DNA of 60,568 bases, filler included, from Globobulimina sp. (Eukaryota): NCBI GenBank assembly GCA_003354225.1. It is 17 parts of 17 records of this genome, joined end to end, with 100 filler letters (N's around TTAATTAATTAA, not from the genome) between each part and the next. Parts side by side here need not be neighbours in the genome. Positions count along the whole stretch, not along the records: positions 42,839 to 46,305 come from PIVH01002725.1; 16 more parts are not named here. One strand, 5' to 3'. The number at the start of each line of letters is the position of its first letter. Positions within the stretch are counted from its first letter, which is position 1. A program made the position numbers and the translations under genes. This document shows, one piece after another, positions 3,473 to 60,392 of the stretch. The notes under the pieces are model-generated. The model did no database searches. It was not told the origin of the DNA and saw nothing but the letters and a program-made list of their open reading frames with translations.

Positions 3473-3572
3473 NNNNNNNNNNNNNNNNNNNNNNNNNNNN
3501 NNNNNNNNNNNNNNNNTTAATTAATTAANNNNNNNNNNNNNNNNNNNNNNNNNNNNNNNNNNNNNNNNNNNN
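3473..3572. other. Artificial contig-joining spacer (first of 16)
   Basis: 44 N + TTAATTAATTAA (stops in all six frames) + 44 N. Identical spacers start at 7045, 10617, 14188, 17759, 21329, 24899, 28468, 32037, 35605, 39172, 42739, 46306, 49872, 53438 and 57004. Contig lengths fall monotonically from 3472 to 3465. Confidence 0.99.
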
Positions 3573-7044: not shown

Positions 7045-7144
7045 NNNNNNNNNNNNNNNNNNNNNNNNNNNNNNNNNNNNNNNNNNNNTTAATTAATTAA
7101 NNNNNNNNNNNNNNNNNNNNNNNNNNNNNNNNNNNNNNNNNNNN

Positions 7145-43468: not shown

Positions 43469-44107
43469 TCAACAATTAGAAATAAATAATCTTTTAAAAC
43501 AAACCAATAAATGTCTATTTAAATTTGATTTGTTTGTAAAATGAGCATTACATTTCTTGCAAGGATACAATTTTCGCTCCTTTGTTTTTAAATGCGTTTC
43601 AAAGTGTTTTTGTAATGAGTTTTTCCGATCAAATCGCTTCTTACAATATCTACAAATAAATTGTAACTGTTTCTGATAGATCCCATCCGCATGGATTCTT
43701 TTCGTATGCTTCCGTAAATTTGAAGGATCATTGAATTTCATCGAACAAAACTTACGTTGATGTATTTTTAAGTCATATTTTCGAGCAAATGATTTGTTGC
43801 AAATATTCAAATATGAACATTTAAATGGCTTTTTTGTATGTTGCCGTGAATGTGCTATCAAATATTTTAAATCTGCGAAGTATTTGGTGCAGCCATTAAA
43901 AGTACAACAATAATATTGCAATTGCACAGGTTTTAAATTGTTATCTGGTACGAAACTAAAATGATTATATTTCTTTTGATGGCTTAATAATTGTTTTCGA
44001 TCAGCAAATATAGCAAAACAATGTCGACAACAAACAGCTGTGTTATTTTGTGTATTAAATTTGTTTGAACATTTTACAGAAATTTCAGGGGAAAATAATG
44101 GAAACAT
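43469..44107 (-). CDS. C2H2 zinc-finger protein
   Basis: Multiple CxxC..F..L..H..H fingers and an HTKKPFKC linker; one finger appears partly deleted. Confidence 0.88.
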   Translation of the reverse strand: MFPLFSPEISVKCSNKFNTQNNTAVCCRHCFAIFADRKQLLSHQKKYNHFSFVPDNNLKPVQLQYYCCTFNGCTKYFADLKYLIAHSRQHTKKPFKCSYLNICNKSFARKYDLKIHQRKFCSMKFNDPSNLRKHTKRIHADGIYQKQLQFICRYCKKRFDRKNSLQKHFETHLKTKERKLYPCKKCNAHFTNKSNLNRHLLVCFKRLFISNC

Positions 44108-44546: not shown

Positions 44547-46305
44547 TTAGCGCGGCTCAGAACGAGCAAAATATATATTACAAACACCGATATTGATCAT
44601 CTGTATTTGAGGATTTTGAGCGGACCAAGGGTTATCACCGTCGATTAGATTGTCTTTTTCGTCATCATTTATAGCTTCATTATCCAATTGCAATTTCATT
44701 TTACATTTTTCAAATCTGATCGGATTAAAACGAAGAGAGCCATAAAACGAAGAGATCTCTGAATGCTTTGATTCATTTTCCAAATCTCGCCCAATCTCTG
44801 TGATTAAAGCAATAAAATCAGCTTTGACTTTTCTATTCAAGTTATTTGCAAAAGAAGCACAAATACATTTTGTAAAATAACCCCGATCAGACATAGCTCG
44901 ACCTTTAATATTCCCTGATATTGTCATAAAATTTGAGTCATACGATATCTTTCCATATTGGTCGCCACTGTTATCATAAACCAATGAAGTGTGCACATTT
45001 ATTGATCTTAGTAATTGTGTTGATTTAGATGTACGATCACCTTCTCCATCTCCATAATCATTTGTACCTTGACAGCCATGATGGAATATTAACTTAATCA
45101 ATGATGAGTGATCAAATAATTCTGCTGATGTTATCAATTCATGACAAATGAAATCAACAGCAACACTTTTTCCATCCGATGCTATAAAAACATCATTCGA
45201 TCCATGAGATATGACATGAACAATAACACAATCATAATATTTCTCGTCATTCAATGTTTGACCCAATTTTTGCTTATGACGATCAATAAAATCAATTACA
45301 TCCCCTTTGGAACAGTATAAACTATCACCACAAACAAACACATCATATTCATATTTGCCTCGCCATAATGCCATGAGATCAATAACATTTTGTTCAACTC
45401 CGGGCAAATTTTGATCTTTATCATCAAACTCAGACATGGCAATGATTAAAACCAATGCGTTATCCACCACATGGGCATTCATATAATTTTTTCTGCAACA
45501 ATATAACAACGTAATTACACACAAACACACAATTATGGCAAATGATAGCAACGCATAAAACAAATAGGAAACAAATGGAGGGATTTTTGGCGGTTTTGGC
45601 CCTGTTTGTTGCAATTCTGCGGAGAACATAAGTTTATTGTTGTTAAACAACGTCCTCAATGTAGTGGTTGTATCATTAATAAAGACGGAGTTCAAAGAAA
45701 TAAAGCGGATTATTTCGCAAACGTTTTCGTCTTCACATTGGATGATGGATAATAATAACATGCTATTCTTAGAGGTCTGAACTAATCCATTTGGTTTCGA
45801 AAGAATTTGGAACAGTTTGTAATGTAGTTCATCTGCATGCAATTCAATTTTTGAAGTTTCCAAGTATGAGCGCTTCAATATCAACAAAATATTATGCAAA
45901 ACAGTTTTATTGTTTAGGACGTAATTGCAATTGTTTTGTGTTAGCTCGTAAAATATATAATCGATTTCTAGCGACACTGAATATTCATCGGTTGTCGTGG
46001 GATCCATAGTTGGCAATGAAGTTGGTTCAAACGTTGGAACTAACGTAGGGTTTGACGATGGATTCAAACTTGGAATTACAGTTGGATCTGTAGTTGGATT
46101 TGACGTTGGGTTTTCTGAAGGATATAACGTGGGATATATAGTTGGTAATGCAGTGGGTTCAAACGTTGGATCTAACGTAGGGATTAAAGAAGGATTAAAA
46201 CTTGGAATTACAGTTGGATATGTCGTTGGATTTAAAGTAGGATATGTCGTTGGATTTAAAGTTGGATTTGTACTTGGATTTGAGCTCGGATTTGTGGTTG
46301 GAATA
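44547..46305 (-). CDS. Single-pass membrane protein: PT-repeat stalk, TM, cytoplasmic peptidase C14 (caspase-family) domain; 5'-truncated
   Basis: (P-T/S-x-x)n open to the contig edge; TM YLFYALLSFAIIVCLCVITLLY; NALVLII..LPG, VHVISHG and KLIFHHGCQG dyad motifs. Confidence 0.85.
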
Positions 46306-46614
46306 NNNNNNNNNNNNNNNNNNNNNNNNNNNNNNNNNNNNNNNNNNNNTTAATTAATTAANNNNNNNNNNNNNNNNNNNNNNNNNNNNNNNNNNNNNNN
46401 NNNNNAATATATGGTTAAGATGAATACAATGGTTGATATGGTAATAACATTCATACTTTATTTAAAAATGAAGACCTTTGTTCATTAGACTATGGCTATT
46501 AAAATAATTCAAAACGCTTGAAAACTTCAACATGAATACTGATCGGATTTATTTAAACGTACAAATATGAATTGAAAACAATGCATACAATAAGTGTTAA
46601 TACGAGAAGTCACA

Positions 46615-47319
46615 TTATAAAATTTCGCAATCAACAGGTTCAATTTTAAATAATTGTTTTAATGCAATTTTGTCATAAGCATCTCCGTCCGATGCACGTT
46701 CTATCAATCTGGCTTTCAACTCATCCGGAGCCAACTCCCTGATTGTTTTAAGTAATCCGCCTTCATCACTTTTAACCAATGTCGTTTGTAAATTTTGAAT
46801 GAATTTCATAAATTTCTCATTGTGTGCTACATTTTGAATTGGTTCCCATGTCTTGTCCTCTTCATTTGGATAACCGTCCCATTCCACCTTATAAAGACAT
46901 TTGCCGCCGGAAAATGTCCAACAAAGAATATCTTTTACTGGATAGTTATTATCATTTTTTGCTGATTTTTTTATTTTTTTTTTGCTCGGCTCTCCGTTAT
47001 CTCCATTTACATTTACATCTTCATCTCTTTTTCTTTTTTTATTCTGATTTTTATTTTTATCATTATTTTTATCCATTTTTATATCATCATCTTCGTCTTC
47101 TTCCTCCTCGTTTTCATTATTTCCAACCAATTCATTTACTTCATTCTCATTGTCTTGTTTTATATCATTTGAGTCATCATCTTTTTCATTTTTTTCTGGT
47201 GTGTCTTCATTTTCTGATGTTTCAGTTGTTTTGCTTTTGGTAACCTCCATCAAGGCAAGTTTCGGCGATGATTCAGTGGATGTTTCAACTTCATTTTCTT
47301 TGGCTTCTGCTGCAGACAT
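46615..47319 (-). CDS. Chromodomain protein
   Basis: YPVKDIL...LYKVEWDGYPNEEDKTWEPIQNV; acidic N-terminus and NLS-like KKRKR / PSKKKIKK. Confidence 0.9.
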   Translation of the reverse strand: MSAAEAKENEVETSTESSPKLALMEVTKSKTTETSENEDTPEKNEKDDDSNDIKQDNENEVNELVGNNENEEEEDEDDDIKMDKNNDKNKNQNKKRKRDEDVNVNGDNGEPSKKKIKKSAKNDNNYPVKDILCWTFSGGKCLYKVEWDGYPNEEDKTWEPIQNVAHNEKFMKFIQNLQTTLVKSDEGGLLKTIRELAPDELKARLIERASDGDAYDKIALKQLFKIEPVDCEIL

Positions 47320-47473: not shown

Positions 47474-49138
47474 TTATGTTTTTGACATAGTAATTAATCG
47501 ATTTGTCATTAACAACTCAGAATACCAAACATCAGTATCCTCATTTTGTTGCTCTTCTGTAACAAAATCAAATTTTTTAACAATGCAACGAATATGCCGT
47601 GGCGGTTGAATTGGAAATGGATTATATTTCATTAATCTCAAAATGCTTGGATTGTTTTCCTGTAATAACTGTATAACTTTCTTAAACCATTCCGGTGGTC
47701 GGTAATAATTACAATTATAATCCAAATATCTTTTCCAATATAAGGGTAAAAACCATATTCTCCAATCCAATCTCGGTACGTGCAAGATAACCAACTGTGG
47801 CTTATCTGTAATTAACGATGGCTTATACACAAAATGATATGTTTTCCATTCAACCAAATCATCACTGCCTTCAACAATAAACTCATATCTTTCCGTGTTC
47901 ATACTGCCGAATTTTGCGTATTTATTTCCGAACTTATACCTCCGCAATTTTCTGCTGACACGCGTGATATCGTCAGTTACCGGCAGCGGATATTGAGAAG
48001 TTTCAGTCAATGGCTGCCATGAACCGACCACGTACAAACAAATCATAACACAGGATATTGGAATGGTTATCCATTCATAGAAAAACCAATGTGTGCCACC
48101 ATTTAAATATTGCTGTTTGATATTATGAGCAACATTGAGCAGAAACTGTGGCAACACACTGTCGTCCAACAGCGACATGGTTTCAGTCATCATCAACTGA
48201 CCAATATAGCCGAAATTGCCAGACATATTAATTACTAATATCAGCCATTGGAATCCAATGAAAGCGACATAGCGAGACCAGGATGGACCAAACACGCCAA
48301 AACATAGCGGTCCTTCAATAAATAAAGTGCCAAACACAGAGAGTTTATGTTGGTAAATGGGTAAATGATGGAAAAAGAAAGAGAATATATTTGGCAGTGG
48401 CTGGGTGATATAATGTCGATTCATTGCTGTCAATTGTTTCCAGGATGCCGCGCCAAACCATTTACACATTCCGCAGCCAAGCATTATGCGAAAGGCTAAC
48501 CATCGATATACGAATATGGCAATAAATGGATATCGGAAATGCGTAAAACTGCAGCAGAACATTAACAGATTTAACTCTACCATTTCAGAATCATTTTGTA
48601 GCATTAAAAAATCACCGGAAACACCAATATATGAGTTGTATAAAATAGCATTGGTCATATAGCAGGTTGCTAATATAAATATGGAGTATGAATAAAAAGG
48701 TAATAAACACATGACAAAGCCTGAAAGAATGCCAATAATACCTACGATTCGAATAAATGTTGGGGAGGAAGATAACCAAAATATTGAAGGTTTGAGCATG
48801 AATTTAGAGAAAAAAGAAGCATTTTCATCAATGTTATAACGTAATGGCCATTGGCTAATCAGTGTATGTGCTGGACAGACACCGTCGGGTAATATTAATC
48901 CGAGCTGAACATACCATGATGTAAACGATACAATATTTAATAATCCAATCATGAATTCAATCAACATTAACGTTGCATCGCATGGTTCGAATAAATCATT
49001 AATTGACAATGACACAAAGTAACTTAATACATTATCCGTAAGCAATATGTACAAAAATACAATGATAGGGACATTGAGGGATGGATACTCCGCCAACAAA
49101 TCACGTAATATCATCTGTGGCTCTTTGAACAATGACAT
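47474..49138 (-). CDS. Lipase maturation factor family protein
   Basis: RWLAFRIMLGCG..K, W..LTAM..HY.TQPLPN, SGNFG, RYEFIVEGSDD..W..Y.F.YKP and PRLDW..WF. Confidence 0.92.
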   Translation of the reverse strand: MSLFKEPQMILRDLLAEYPSLNVPIIVFLYILLTDNVLSYFVSLSINDLFEPCDATLMLIEFMIGLLNIVSFTSWYVQLGLILPDGVCPAHTLISQWPLRYNIDENASFFSKFMLKPSIFWLSSSPTFIRIVGIIGILSGFVMCLLPFYSYSIFILATCYMTNAILYNSYIGVSGDFLMLQNDSEMVELNLLMFCCSFTHFRYPFIAIFVYRWLAFRIMLGCGMCKWFGAASWKQLTAMNRHYITQPLPNIFSFFFHHLPIYQHKLSVFGTLFIEGPLCFGVFGPSWSRYVAFIGFQWLILVINMSGNFGYIGQLMMTETMSLLDDSVLPQFLLNVAHNIKQQYLNGGTHWFFYEWITIPISCVMICLYVVGSWQPLTETSQYPLPVTDDITRVSRKLRRYKFGNKYAKFGSMNTERYEFIVEGSDDLVEWKTYHFVYKPSLITDKPQLVILHVPRLDWRIWFLPLYWKRYLDYNCNYYRPPEWFKKVIQLLQENNPSILRLMKYNPFPIQPPRHIRCIVKKFDFVTEEQQNEDTDVWYSELLMTNRLITMSKT

Positions 49139-49242
49139 GATAAGTTTGAAGTGTCTGAAAAACCGTTTACAACTGAACTGATGGCGTGACAATAAAGCCA
49201 AGGCGATGCAAATTCAAAACATGTTAAAAGAAAAGAAAAATG

Positions 49243-57003: not shown

Positions 57004-57103
57004 NNNNNNNNNNNNNNNNNNNNNNNNNNNNNNNNNNNNNNNNNNNNTTAATTAATTAANNNNNNNNNNNNNNNNNNNNNNNNNNNNNNNNNNNNNNNNN
57101 NNN

Positions 57104-57992: not shown

Positions 57993-60392
57993 ATGGCCGA
58001 CGTAGCACCAAAAGAAGGCGAATGGATTTTGCGTCCAGCAAAGACGAACTGGATCGCGACATTGTCGAACAAGAATTACTGGGCCTTTTATTTCCTAGTG
58101 ATTGTGGCAATTTGTGTGGGCGGAATTGGTTATTTTGGGGAAGTGGCGCATTATGAGGTGCCGCCATTGTGCGATTTCGTGGGTCCTGATGGCAGCGTGG
58201 TGATATCGGCCAAGAGCATCAATCACGGCGAGGAGGTGTTCCATTTGCGAGGTTTGATGGCTTATGGCTCCTTCTTAGGGGATGGCAGTGAGCGTGGCCC
58301 CGATTATACGGCCGAGGCGTTGCACGAATTAGCAATTGGAATGACCAAACATTACGAATCCAAATTGAAGCACAAGACGCAGCACGATGTGGAAGCCCTG
58401 AAACCCAGAGTCCGCATGGAACTCCGCAACAACGCGTACGATTTGGAGAAGGATGTGATTGTCTTGAATTCGGCGCAAATCTCTGCGTGGAAGAGGATCA
58501 AAACTTATTATCGGCGAATCTTTGCGGGTGCGGACCAAGGAACGTCCACTTTGACGCCAAATATGTTCATAACGAACCCGACGGACATCGCAGATTTGGC
58601 CGGCTTCTTTTTTTGGGGCGCCTGGATGTCTGCGGCGGCGCGACCCGGCGAAGATTACAGTTATACTCATAATTGGCCGCATGAGCCGTTGGCGGGAAAC
58701 ATCCCAACGCCGGCCGTGATTTTGTGGTCGGCCATCTCAGTGTTGATATTATGGTTTGGTTTGGCGGCCACCCTATTTATTTACGGACAGTTGGACCACG
58801 AAAACGAGGACGAAGAGGACATTAAGACGAAAGGACAGCCGTTGACGACCCAGGATTTGGAGACTGGCGTTGTCCGCGAAACGCAGGTGGACTGTTACAA
58901 GTTCTTCGTATTATCGATGCTGGCCTTCGCCATTCAAGTGATAGCCGGGGTTTGCTGCGCCATCGACTTCGTGCGACCGCTCGGCTTCTCGGCCTGTTAC
59001 ATATTGGGTTACAACGTCTTGCGTTCCTATCACGCCACTTTCCAGATCTTCTGGTTCTTTGTGGCTTGGGTTGGAACCACCATTTGGTTTTTGCCGCGTT
59101 TCCAGCGACGAGTGCCCATTGGACAGAAATTTTTGATTAATTTGTTGTTTGGCGGTTGCTGTGTGGTGGCACTTGGCGGCGCCATCGGTATTCCATTGGG
59201 ACAGACCGGGTACATTCAGGGCGAAATGGCGTATTATTTCGGATCGCAAGGCTGGGAATTTATGGAATTGGGCCGCATATTTCAGGATTTATTGTTGTGC
59301 GGCTTTGTGTTATGGATTTTGATCTTATTTCGCGGCGTCTATTCGTACATTACGTGGAACACCATCTGGTCGACTCCGGCCTGGGTGTTTTACGGCAGTT
59401 TGGTGATGGTTTGGTTTTTATTTTTCAGTTTGAAGGTGACGCCGAAAACGAATTTCATAGTGTCGGACTTCTGGCGGTGGATGGTGGTGCATATGTGGGT
59501 CGAGGTAACTTTTGAAGTGTTCACCACTGTGATTGTGGCCTTCTTGTACCGCGAAATGGGATTAGTGAGCAAAAAGGCAGCGGAGCGAGCCACGTATATC
59601 GCGGTGATGTTGTTCTTTTTGACTGCGACCATCGGTGTGGGGCATAATTTTTATTGGATTGCGAAGCCAACGGGAGTCATTGCGATGGGCAGCGCCTTCT
59701 CGACGACGCAGGTGATGCCTCTTATTTTGCTGACGATGGACGCCTGGAAATTCATCCAAATGCGCGAGAAAGCCGAGTTGGAGCAAGCGAAAGGAAATCA
59801 GAAGCATATTATGCGCGGAGTGTGGTTATTTATGTTGGGCGTCAACTTCTGGAATGTGTTTGGTGCCGGAATCTTGGGCTCGTTTATCAATTTACCCGTT
59901 GTCAATTATTACATGCACTCGACATATTTGACTGGCAATCATGCTCATGCCGCCATGTGGGGCGTAAAAGGAAACATTGCCATTGCCGGCGTCTTATTTT
60001 GTGTGCAACATACGGTGCAAGAGAAGTATTGGTCGCCTAAGATCGTGTCGGTGGCGTTCTGGTCGTTGAATGGTGGTATTGCGGCGCAGATGTTTTTGTC
60101 GATGTTCCCCGCGGGTTTGGTGCATATGTACACCGCCATGGCAGAGGGACTATGGGCAGCGCGTACGCACGATATGTATAATTCGACCATCTTCCAGAAT
60201 TTAGCGAAAGGTCGAGCCTTCGGAGGACATATCTTTTTATGGGGTGGCTTATTGCCGTTGGTTTATTTCGTGGTTTCCAGATATTTCTATCTCAAACCAG
60301 TCACGCCGAATATTGATAAGAATCGCAAATATGACTCATTTTGGTTGGATGCTGCGCATACTGCACCTTATTCCACTAAAAAACTCGTGTAA
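57993..60392 (+). CDS. nod: qNor-family heme-iron enzyme with nitric oxide dismutase (Nod) signature residues
   Basis: YGSFLGDG..RGPDYTAEALH, YSYTHNWP.EP..GN, GSQGWEFMELGR, WRWMVVHMWVEVTFEVF, GHNFYW, STTQVMPL, WNVFGAG and HAHAAMWG. 799 aa, complete. Confidence 0.9.
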   Translation: MADVAPKEGEWILRPAKTNWIATLSNKNYWAFYFLVIVAICVGGIGYFGEVAHYEVPPLCDFVGPDGSVVISAKSINHGEEVFHLRGLMAYGSFLGDGSERGPDYTAEALHELAIGMTKHYESKLKHKTQHDVEALKPRVRMELRNNAYDLEKDVIVLNSAQISAWKRIKTYYRRIFAGADQGTSTLTPNMFITNPTDIADLAGFFFWGAWMSAAARPGEDYSYTHNWPHEPLAGNIPTPAVILWSAISVLILWFGLAATLFIYGQLDHENEDEEDIKTKGQPLTTQDLETGVVRETQVDCYKFFVLSMLAFAIQVIAGVCCAIDFVRPLGFSACYILGYNVLRSYHATFQIFWFFVAWVGTTIWFLPRFQRRVPIGQKFLINLLFGGCCVVALGGAIGIPLGQTGYIQGEMAYYFGSQGWEFMELGRIFQDLLLCGFVLWILILFRGVYSYITWNTIWSTPAWVFYGSLVMVWFLFFSLKVTPKTNFIVSDFWRWMVVHMWVEVTFEVFTTVIVAFLYREMGLVSKKAAERATYIAVMLFFLTATIGVGHNFYWIAKPTGVIAMGSAFSTTQVMPLILLTMDAWKFIQMREKAELEQAKGNQKHIMRGVWLFMLGVNFWNVFGAGILGSFINLPVVNYYMHSTYLTGNHAHAAMWGVKGNIAIAGVLFCVQHTVQEKYWSPKIVSVAFWSLNGGIAAQMFLSMFPAGLVHMYTAMAEGLWAARTHDMYNSTIFQNLAKGRAFGGHIFLWGGLLPLVYFVVSRYFYLKPVTPNIDKNRKYDSFWLDAAHTAPYSTKKLV

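Follow-up and report, generated by a model that had tools for sequence, protein, structure and literature searches.

Background

To our knowledge, textbooks confine caspases to animals, where they are recruited to receptors via adaptor proteins. In the death-inducing signalling complex (DISC) of animals, three proteins, a death receptor, FADD and caspase-8, are joined by death-fold domains. The paracaspase MALT1, a soluble protein with death and immunoglobulin domains, is activated by dimerisation and is Arg-specific via an acidic S1 pocket. Caspase-type proteins of the foraminiferan Reticulomyxa filosa branch with animal caspases at 92-95% bootstrap, according to the sections of Klim et al. 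(2018; PMC5982838) available to us, and Reticulomyxa ETO10778.1 serves as outgroup in the available sections of later papers (PMC10959488; PMC10565124). In silico work has recognized bacterial metacaspases and orthocaspases that carry membrane helices together with receptor domains, as reported in the accessible parts of Asplund-Samuelsson et al. (2012; PMC3501461), and the same bacterial type is found in those of Klemencic and Funk (2017; PMC5756287). The gene described here occupies positions 44547-46305 on the minus strand of a window of 60,568 nt, the whole stretch of Globobulimina sp. DNA that was analysed (assembly GCA_003354225.1), and encodes a receptor-like ectodomain, a single membrane span and a caspase-type protease domain in one polypeptide.

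We read its product as a type I receptor-like caspase-type protease with an initiator-caspase mechanism, which on balance we consider probable. On the DNA level the locus is best explained as the 3' 1.76 kb of an intron-free, 5'-truncated foraminiferan gene, and our confidence in this reading as a whole is moderate.

A caspase-type domain behind a single membrane span

The minus strand of the locus carries a single open frame of 585 codons plus stop, which runs off the 5' contig end. By our own arithmetic, the odds of a random frame staying open over this length are about 2e-20, with stops making up approximately 7.5% of random codons at 33% GC. The contig (42839-46305) ends inside the stalk repeats, and hence the 5' end is absent from this copy of the gene. 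In a tblastn search of the whole window with the protease domain the gene itself was the sole match (next best E 1.7), and an Rfam scan of the entire window gave no match.

All elements listed in an earlier note on this DNA were recovered in this one frame (Table 1). The mucin-like stalk could be read as 26 perfect repeat units. The single transmembrane segment followed by CCRK coincides with the only hydrophobic peak of the protein that reaches a mean of at least 1.6 (best 19-residue Kyte-Doolittle mean 2.77 at residues 252-270), its end being formed by C269-C270-R271-K272. Both catalytic motifs of the C14 domain are in place, ISHG carrying His367 and HGCQG carrying Cys411. A juxtamembrane domain is present as well, although it comprises 139 residues and not about 150 as first estimated. 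A linker of only 12 residues leads from the membrane to the first protease strand, and the family consensus of this stretch is R-K-x-Y-x-N-A-F-V-V-D. The two cysteines at the end of the span form a possible palmitoylation site, and the Pro/Thr-rich stalk is probably O-glycosylated.

The membrane-proximal module, which we picture as small and globular, contains two N-x-S/T sequons (N132 and N210) and three cysteines. Local phmmer and jackhmmer searches among 152 family proteins found it to be common only to P0002, P0003 and P0053. A database search with residues 104-248 returned no match at E<=0.01, its word index having missed even P0002 and P0003. Since the pLDDT (predicted local distance difference test) of the AlphaFold2 (AF2) model is only 24-45 over this region, no fold was assigned to the module; a SEA-like fold, such as animal mucins carry beside their membrane span, would be a speculative option.

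The Pfam model Peptidase_C14 (PF00656) matched residues 284-524 with an E-value of 7.3e-10 and 39.4 bits, compared to a curated cut-off of 21.4 bits. In a phmmer alignment with caspase-8 (E 0.0054), ISHG and HGCQG aligned to the SHG and QACQG motifs. The structure prediction proposed in the earlier note yielded a confident caspase fold: with 59 sequences as input, the AF2 model of the domain alone reached a mean pLDDT of 84.6 and a predicted template modelling score (pTM) of 0.81. Compared with about 48,000 PDB representatives, this model was most similar to the caspase chain 4jj7_A (Z 26.1, root-mean-square deviation 3.3 over 220 residues), followed by chain 4pry_A (Z 25.2), caspase-9 (24.8) and CED-3 (22.6). 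In total, caspase-8, -3, -9 and CED-3 spanned Z 22.6-26.1, and caspase-4, Dronc and c-FLIP ranged from 20.3 to 20.8, with c-FLIP at 20.3. The paracaspase MALT1 scored 21.8 and metacaspases 13.2-18.3. A Foldseek search with the full-length model placed only animal caspases on top (procaspase-7, E 3.9e-11), and the nearest clusters in the ESM Atlas were animal caspase-3, -14 and -7-like proteins (0.94 each). When family profiles were compared with PDB sequences, none was matched at E<=0.01, and the second profile only hit caspase-2 at E 0.33. Because sequence similarity to solved caspases is weak, the caspase assignment rests on Pfam and the predicted structure. The family model, the caspase/hemoglobinase fold and the His-Cys dyad identify the domain as a member of C14, and the predicted structure is closer to caspases than to paracaspases or metacaspases.

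The catalytic residues are highly conserved in the family, with His367 found in 129 of 132 members, Gly368 in 118 of 132, Cys411 in 127 of 131 and Gly413 in 128 of 131. The conservation of the dyad and its flanking glycines argues for a working enzyme. Behind the catalytic cysteine follows an insert (residues 414-452) of low model confidence, with pLDDT below 50 in the full-length AF2 model and 55-65 in the domain-only model. Its length differs among family members in the alignment, and its position corresponds to the linker between the large and small subunits of caspases.

A large foraminiferal family

A word-indexed search resulted in 9 relatives of 37-51% identity, in all of which the same domain forms the C-terminus and is preceded by one hydrophobic span and an N-terminal region. 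A family profile derived from the gene and these relatives (ten sequences) was searched against 1.84 billion representatives and gave 390 matches at E<=1e-3, 202 at E<=1e-10 and 144 at E<=1e-30, the latter being clusters at 50% identity. Many members are 1000-3100 residues long with the C14 domain at the C-terminus. The sources of 28 members were looked up: 22 came from Bolivina argentea and 4 from Nonionella stella transcriptomes (EukProt), and the remaining 2 were NCBI proteins encoded on 10.8-kb and 7.3-kb contigs. All 26 named sources were thus Foraminifera.

Family statistics were drawn from 152 proteins, 149 of which were matched by a hidden Markov model (HMM) of the cytosolic domain. 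The start of the domain is complete in 115 members. In 108 of these, a span (mean of at least 1.6) lies no more than 45 residues upstream of the domain; the exceptions comprise 3 with too little upstream sequence and 4 without a span. The median length is approximately 737 residues ahead of the domain and 27 residues in the tail behind it. Hence, the architecture is the rule within a large foraminiferal family and the gene is no singleton.

In Pfam scans of 33 large relatives, Peptidase_C14 was found at E<=1e-4 in 24. Ectodomain matches were rare and heterogeneous (Beta_helix in 2, a weak Lectin_C in 1, LNR and LRR in 1, PT in 1, and SAM_2 in the tail of 1), so that no shared ligand-binding domain could be named from Pfam on these 33 proteins. 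No death-fold domain was detected by Pfam in the gene or in the same 33 relatives. A comparison of 80 members with complete domain, span and at least 250 residues outside revealed that every one of the 3160 pairs can be aligned over the protease domain (median identity 39%), whereas the outer 250 residues next to the membrane align in only 1074 of these pairs (34%). A constant inside combined with a diversified outside is the pattern of a receptor repertoire.

Four relatives (P0067, P0075, P0096 and P0122) carry the span and the protease near the N-terminus, followed by 600-950 more residues, with LNR/LRR matches downstream in P0067 and a SAM domain in P0096. These represent either other architectures or fused transcript models.

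Predicted dimer and proposed mechanism

A homodimer prediction for residues 272-540, run without the alignment, gave an interface score (ipSAE) of 0.48 as the median of three runs, compared to 0.00 for the best of 3 controls, a score that may be model memory because caspase dimers have already been solved. Among microbes, the ipSAE mark is reached by 21 of 30 proteins solved as pairs of the same chain and by 0 of 23 solved monomers. The corresponding numbers for eukaryotes are 17 of 29 pairs and 0 of 30 monomers, with only 1 of 7 where no older solved relative exists. The three runs share at least 58% of contacts, and the partner pLDDT is at least 75. The predicted interface is symmetric and consists of the last strand (517-528), where residue 521 meets its counterpart in the partner, and helix 496-509, which we take to be the position of the caspase dimer interface.

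By analogy with initiator caspases, the monomeric caspase-type domain would be inactive in the cytosol. A ligand, a surface or another cell would bring the ectodomains together, whereupon two protease domains would pair via the last beta strand and the active sites would form. The enzyme might then process itself within the disordered insert, cleave substrates in the cytosol, or do both. We regard clustering as a plausible but hypothetical trigger, and ligand-driven activation as well as any role in death or immunity are matters that we infer only.

Four alternatives have to be weighed, in decreasing order a tethered protease, an inverted topology, a pseudo-protease and an assembly artefact. 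The first is a membrane-tethered protease without ligand sensing, the stalk and module of which belong to the glycocalyx or mediate adhesion. Such an enzyme may be constitutive or controlled from the cytosol at the cell cortex, e.g. cutting cytoskeletal or membrane proteins during reticulopodial remodelling. It would account for an ectodomain that, in this protein, amounts to a mucin-like stalk and a small module without a recognisable binding domain. The 12-residue tether, which holds the enzyme at the membrane, is also in line with it, and the conserved dyad speaks for catalysis while being silent on sensing. Yet the ectodomains of the family are long and very diverse, and alignability of 34% of pairs outside versus 100% inside is typical of receptor repertoires, unlike what a housekeeping anchor would show. 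The predicted dimer interface, which is caspase-like, also speaks against this alternative. We consider this alternative unlikely, though it survives better than the others.

Membrane topology

Topology was analysed on 120 family members with a span. A signal-peptide-like hydrophobic 10-mer is present at the N-terminus of 71 of 116 members starting with methionine. N-x-S/T sequons occur at 2.13 per 100 residues before the span and 1.05 after it, being more frequent before the span in 106 of 117 members. Within the 15 residues flanking the span, K+R averages 1.75 before it and 2.89 behind it, with net charges of +0.1 and +1.9, respectively. A single span with the positive side after it is thus found both in this protein (R-K after the span) and in the family. 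Signal-peptide-like starts in many long members indicate that the protease should face the cytosol. On the family level, these sequence features point to a type I topology with the ectodomain outside and C14 in the cytosol. Since start codon and signal peptide of this copy are missing together with its 5' end, its own topology is derived from that of its relatives.

The earlier note had recognized that a C14 domain outside the cell would be incompatible with its interpretation; the family-wide evidence places the domain in the cytosol. An inverted or secretory topology, with C14 in the lumen or outside and acting on extracellular or vesicular substrates, would resemble that of legumain and the glycosylphosphatidylinositol (GPI) transamidase subunit of clan CD. 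Both are among the fold matches (GPI transamidase Z 16.6, legumain Z 16.1), cysteines are equally dense on the two sides of the span (3.08 vs 3.06 per 100 residues), and the region that would contain the signal peptide is missing from this copy. On the other hand, the combination of a signal-like start with a single later span defines 71 of the 116 members as type I, sequons are twice as dense before the span, the positive charge follows it, and cytosolic caspases are the closest folds by a wide margin. An inverted orientation therefore appears very improbable.

At the end of the next contig in the window (46406-46454, minus strand), an ATG and 15 mostly hydrophobic codons are in frame with the gene in window coordinates. 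This candidate for the signal peptide of the gene was rejected because the two contigs are joined by an artificial linker and owe their order to their lengths. The in-frame start is most likely a coincidence, as a related contig continues the repeats past 46302.

The S1 pocket

The Asp-binding S1 pocket of caspases is formed by Arg179, Gln283 and Arg341 (caspase-1 numbering), and this triad is not present as such in the foraminiferal domain. The Arg341 slot is occupied by Arg469, which is aligned to the caspase-8 arginine and conserved in 117 of 129 members. The Gln283 slot (QACxG) holds His409 (125 of 131), and the Arg179 slot Leu300 (121 of 126), which lies within NLPGVEQN (residues 299-306). 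Leu300 was assigned to this slot from the motif (L-P-G-V vs R-x-G-T) and from the start of model helix 303-317, and we infer the correspondence from these two features. The statement of the earlier note that the S1 region lacks the caspase arginine is thus right for the Arg179 position, whereas the arginine in the Arg341 slot is kept; the pocket is changed and not lost. With two of three S1 residues replaced, the P1 preference is probably unlike that of Asp-specific caspases, the exact preference not being predictable from these residues. Metacaspases, whose acidic S1 pocket accepts Arg or Lys, score lower in the fold comparison (Z 13.2-18.3). In the foraminiferal domain, the S1 slots as defined by caspase alignment or position contain Leu, His and Arg, none of which is acidic.

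Replacement of S1 residues would also fit a non-catalytic scaffold, i.e. a c-FLIP-like pseudo-protease that signals by recruiting partners, and the protease-like domain of c-FLIP is among the close folds (Z 20.3). However, His367, Cys411 and the flanking glycines are kept in 89-98% of the family members, which is unexpected for pseudo-enzymes and leaves this explanation with very little probability.

Integrity of the gene copy

According to the earlier note, its interpretation would fall if reads or transcripts did not cross the junction between membrane span and C14, and this junction is covered by independent contigs of two sequencing runs. A 540-nt contig from run X1 spans 45128-45667 with 2 differences and leads from the last part of the module across the membrane into C14 beyond His367. 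A 773-nt contig from run X5, which belongs to another organism code and another study, matches 45357-46109, a segment that reaches from the stalk into the beginning of C14, at about 93% identity, and the listed insertions and deletions relative to the gene total multiples of three. In a neighbouring contig of run X5, 15 letters past 46302 encode, by hand translation, one more in-frame x-P-S-x unit, indicating that the stalk extends further upstream. The contig from run X1 ends at 46291, and run X2 displays a 33-base repeat slip at 46249-46281 in the stalk region. Such slippage explains why assemblies break in the stalk.

That the locus is a chimera created by the assembly or a piece of a decaying pseudogene, for which the high fragmentation of the assembly, the contig end within a repeat and the 33-base slip might be quoted, is scarcely credible in view of 585 open codons, colinearity with full-length transcripts from two other species, independent contigs bridging all junctions between the stalk and the initial portion of C14, and in-frame insertions and deletions in the related copy.

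Sequence features and neighbouring genes

The window is composed of 17 contigs arranged by decreasing length, from 3472 down to 3465 nt, most of them AT-rich (GC about 0.27-0.37). Beyond 46305 the sequence continues with a linker and an unrelated contig, and consequently there is no genomic neighbour of the gene on that side. Owing to the artificial spacers, genes that flank a linker are not true neighbours, and frames entering a spacer are cut by contig ends, which calls for caution in annotation.

Table 1. Features of the gene and of its surroundings in window coordinates
Feature	Position	Strand	Remarks
Stalk, residues 1-104	45993-46305	-	Tandem array of 26 x-P-(T/S)-x units; 31.6 bits with the Pfam PT repeat
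Extracellular module next to the membrane, residues 105-243 (139 aa)	45576-45992	-	No family match
Single membrane span, residues 244-270 (F244 to C270)	45495-45575	-	Kyte-Doolittle; AF2 helix 243-275
Short basic juxtamembrane linker RKNYMNAHVVDN, residues 271-282	45459-45494	-	12 residues
Caspase-type Peptidase_C14 domain, residues 283-535	44700-45458	-	Pfam, AF2, fold matches
Variable, predicted-disordered insert, residues 414-452 (39 aa)	44949-45065	-	After catalytic Cys; low pLDDT
C-terminal tail, residues 536-585	44547-44699	-	Low confidence, unconserved; stop codon 44547-44549
Codon of His367	45204-45206	-	
Codon of Cys411	45072-45074	-	
Codon of Leu300	45405-45407	-	
Codon of His409	45078-45080	-	
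Codon of Arg469	44898-44900	-	
Artificial inter-contig linker (N44, TTAATTAATTAA, N44)	46306-46405	.	Non-genomic; 1 of 16 identical spacers
Other linkers	3473-3572, 7045-7144 ... 57004-57103		

The only true genomic neighbour visible is an open reading frame (ORF) for a C2H2 zinc-finger protein at 43469-44107 (minus strand; zf-C2H2, E 1.9e-19), which shares contig and strand with the gene and lies 440 nt beyond the stop codon of the latter. The adjoining contig in the window encodes an acidic chromodomain protein and a homologue of the lipase maturation factor LMF1 (46615-47319 and 47474-49201, minus strand). Both genes are apparently free of introns, which fits a gene-dense, intron-poor genome. 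The contig at 3573-7043 (plus strand) is open throughout as a single frame of 1157 codons, and two CAP-Gly domains (E 2.6e-32) are located towards the end of this frame. Judged from its sequence, it encodes a large microtubule-binding protein that is cut at both contig ends.

The contig at 57104-60568 has a GC content of 0.50 as opposed to about 0.3 elsewhere. Its 799-residue ORF (57993-60389, plus strand) combines NorB cytochrome-c-like and COX1 domains in the architecture of a quinol-type nitric oxide reductase, and the best of 145 bacterial relatives from 185,579 species genomes is 55% identical. Denitrification genes are reported in some foraminifera. The ORF derives either from an unsampled bacterium in the sample or from a foraminiferal denitrification gene.

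Discussion

Several points weigh against a receptor-like protease activated in the manner of initiator caspases. Sequence likeness to solved caspases is weak (E 0.0054 for the single sequence). The altered S1 pocket makes a caspase-like Asp specificity doubtful. The pass in the dimer prediction may reflect memory of solved caspase dimers, i.e. likeness and not binding, and the 12-residue tether may constrain the pairing of two domains. Moreover, the 5' end of this copy is missing and with it a demonstrated start codon or signal peptide; a signal-like N-terminus was found in only 71 of 116 members, and the rest may be truncated transcripts or may differ. We nevertheless prefer the receptor-like reading, with substrates presumably located in the cytosol.

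A tentative extension is that foraminifera hold a diversified repertoire of one-polypeptide 'receptor-caspases' of at least 144 clusters, the ectodomains of which recognise prey, microbes, symbionts or other foraminifera and the clustering of which switches on the protease right at the membrane. This is possible, but we would not expect it to hold in full. If true, receptor-coupled caspase signalling would exist outside animals without death-fold adaptors and might serve immunity, self/non-self control of fusion, or regulated death. A protist lineage has multiplied the design of a caspase-type domain fused to a span into well over a hundred divergent genes. If induced proximity works in these proteins, they would represent the simplest possible form of death-receptor signalling and a test bed for the evolution of activation by dimerisation. 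The family would also point to an unexplored repertoire of surface receptors in foraminifera, organisms of ecological importance with almost no functional genetics. Furthermore, it bears on the question whether caspases predate animals, which is raised in the available sections of Klim et al. (2018; PMC5982838).

In the literature searched, the scope of which excluded the Reticulomyxa genome paper and the supplements of Klim et al., no transmembrane or membrane-anchored caspase of a eukaryote was found. With respect to that literature, both the receptor-like arrangement at the membrane and the extent of the family are new. Caspase-type proteins in a foraminiferan as such are not, having already been published for Reticulomyxa, as the sections of PMC5982838 at hand show.

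MALT1 has a similar fold (Z 21.8) that is less close than the folds of caspases. The bacterial proteins share with the foraminiferal ones the combination of a caspase fold, a span and a presumed extracellular sensor, as described in the accessible parts of these reports for the Trichodesmium metacaspase-CHASE2 protein and MaOC6. In contrast, they are prokaryotic and metacaspase-type, their protease is located N-terminally of the receptor part, and their sensor domains are known bacterial ones. The Reticulomyxa proteins probably belong to the same family as the gene described here. They too represent a caspase-type and not a metacaspase-type C14 in a foraminiferan, although the available sections of PMC5982838 mention no span, ectodomain or family expansion, the word 'transmembrane' referring there to the mitochondrial potential.

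Animal initiator caspases (caspase-8, caspase-9, CED-3 and Dronc; C14A) have the same fold and are the closest of the solved structures (Z 20.7-26.1). Common features are the histidine in S-H-G, the cysteine in x-x-C-(R/Q)-G, the arginine in the Arg341 slot (Arg469) and the disordered inter-subunit insert, to which the dimer prediction would add a two-fold pairing via the last strand. The foraminiferal protein differs in its host, a rhizarian protist, in leucine instead of Arg179 (in the putative slot) and histidine instead of Gln283, and in lacking a DED or CARD prodomain. Its protease domain lies 12 residues behind a span and an ectodomain instead, and an adaptor would probably not be needed. 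The functional logic may correspond to that of the DISC, in which clustering of surface ectodomains brings caspase domains together; in the foraminiferal protein, however, receptor and protease are one polypeptide.

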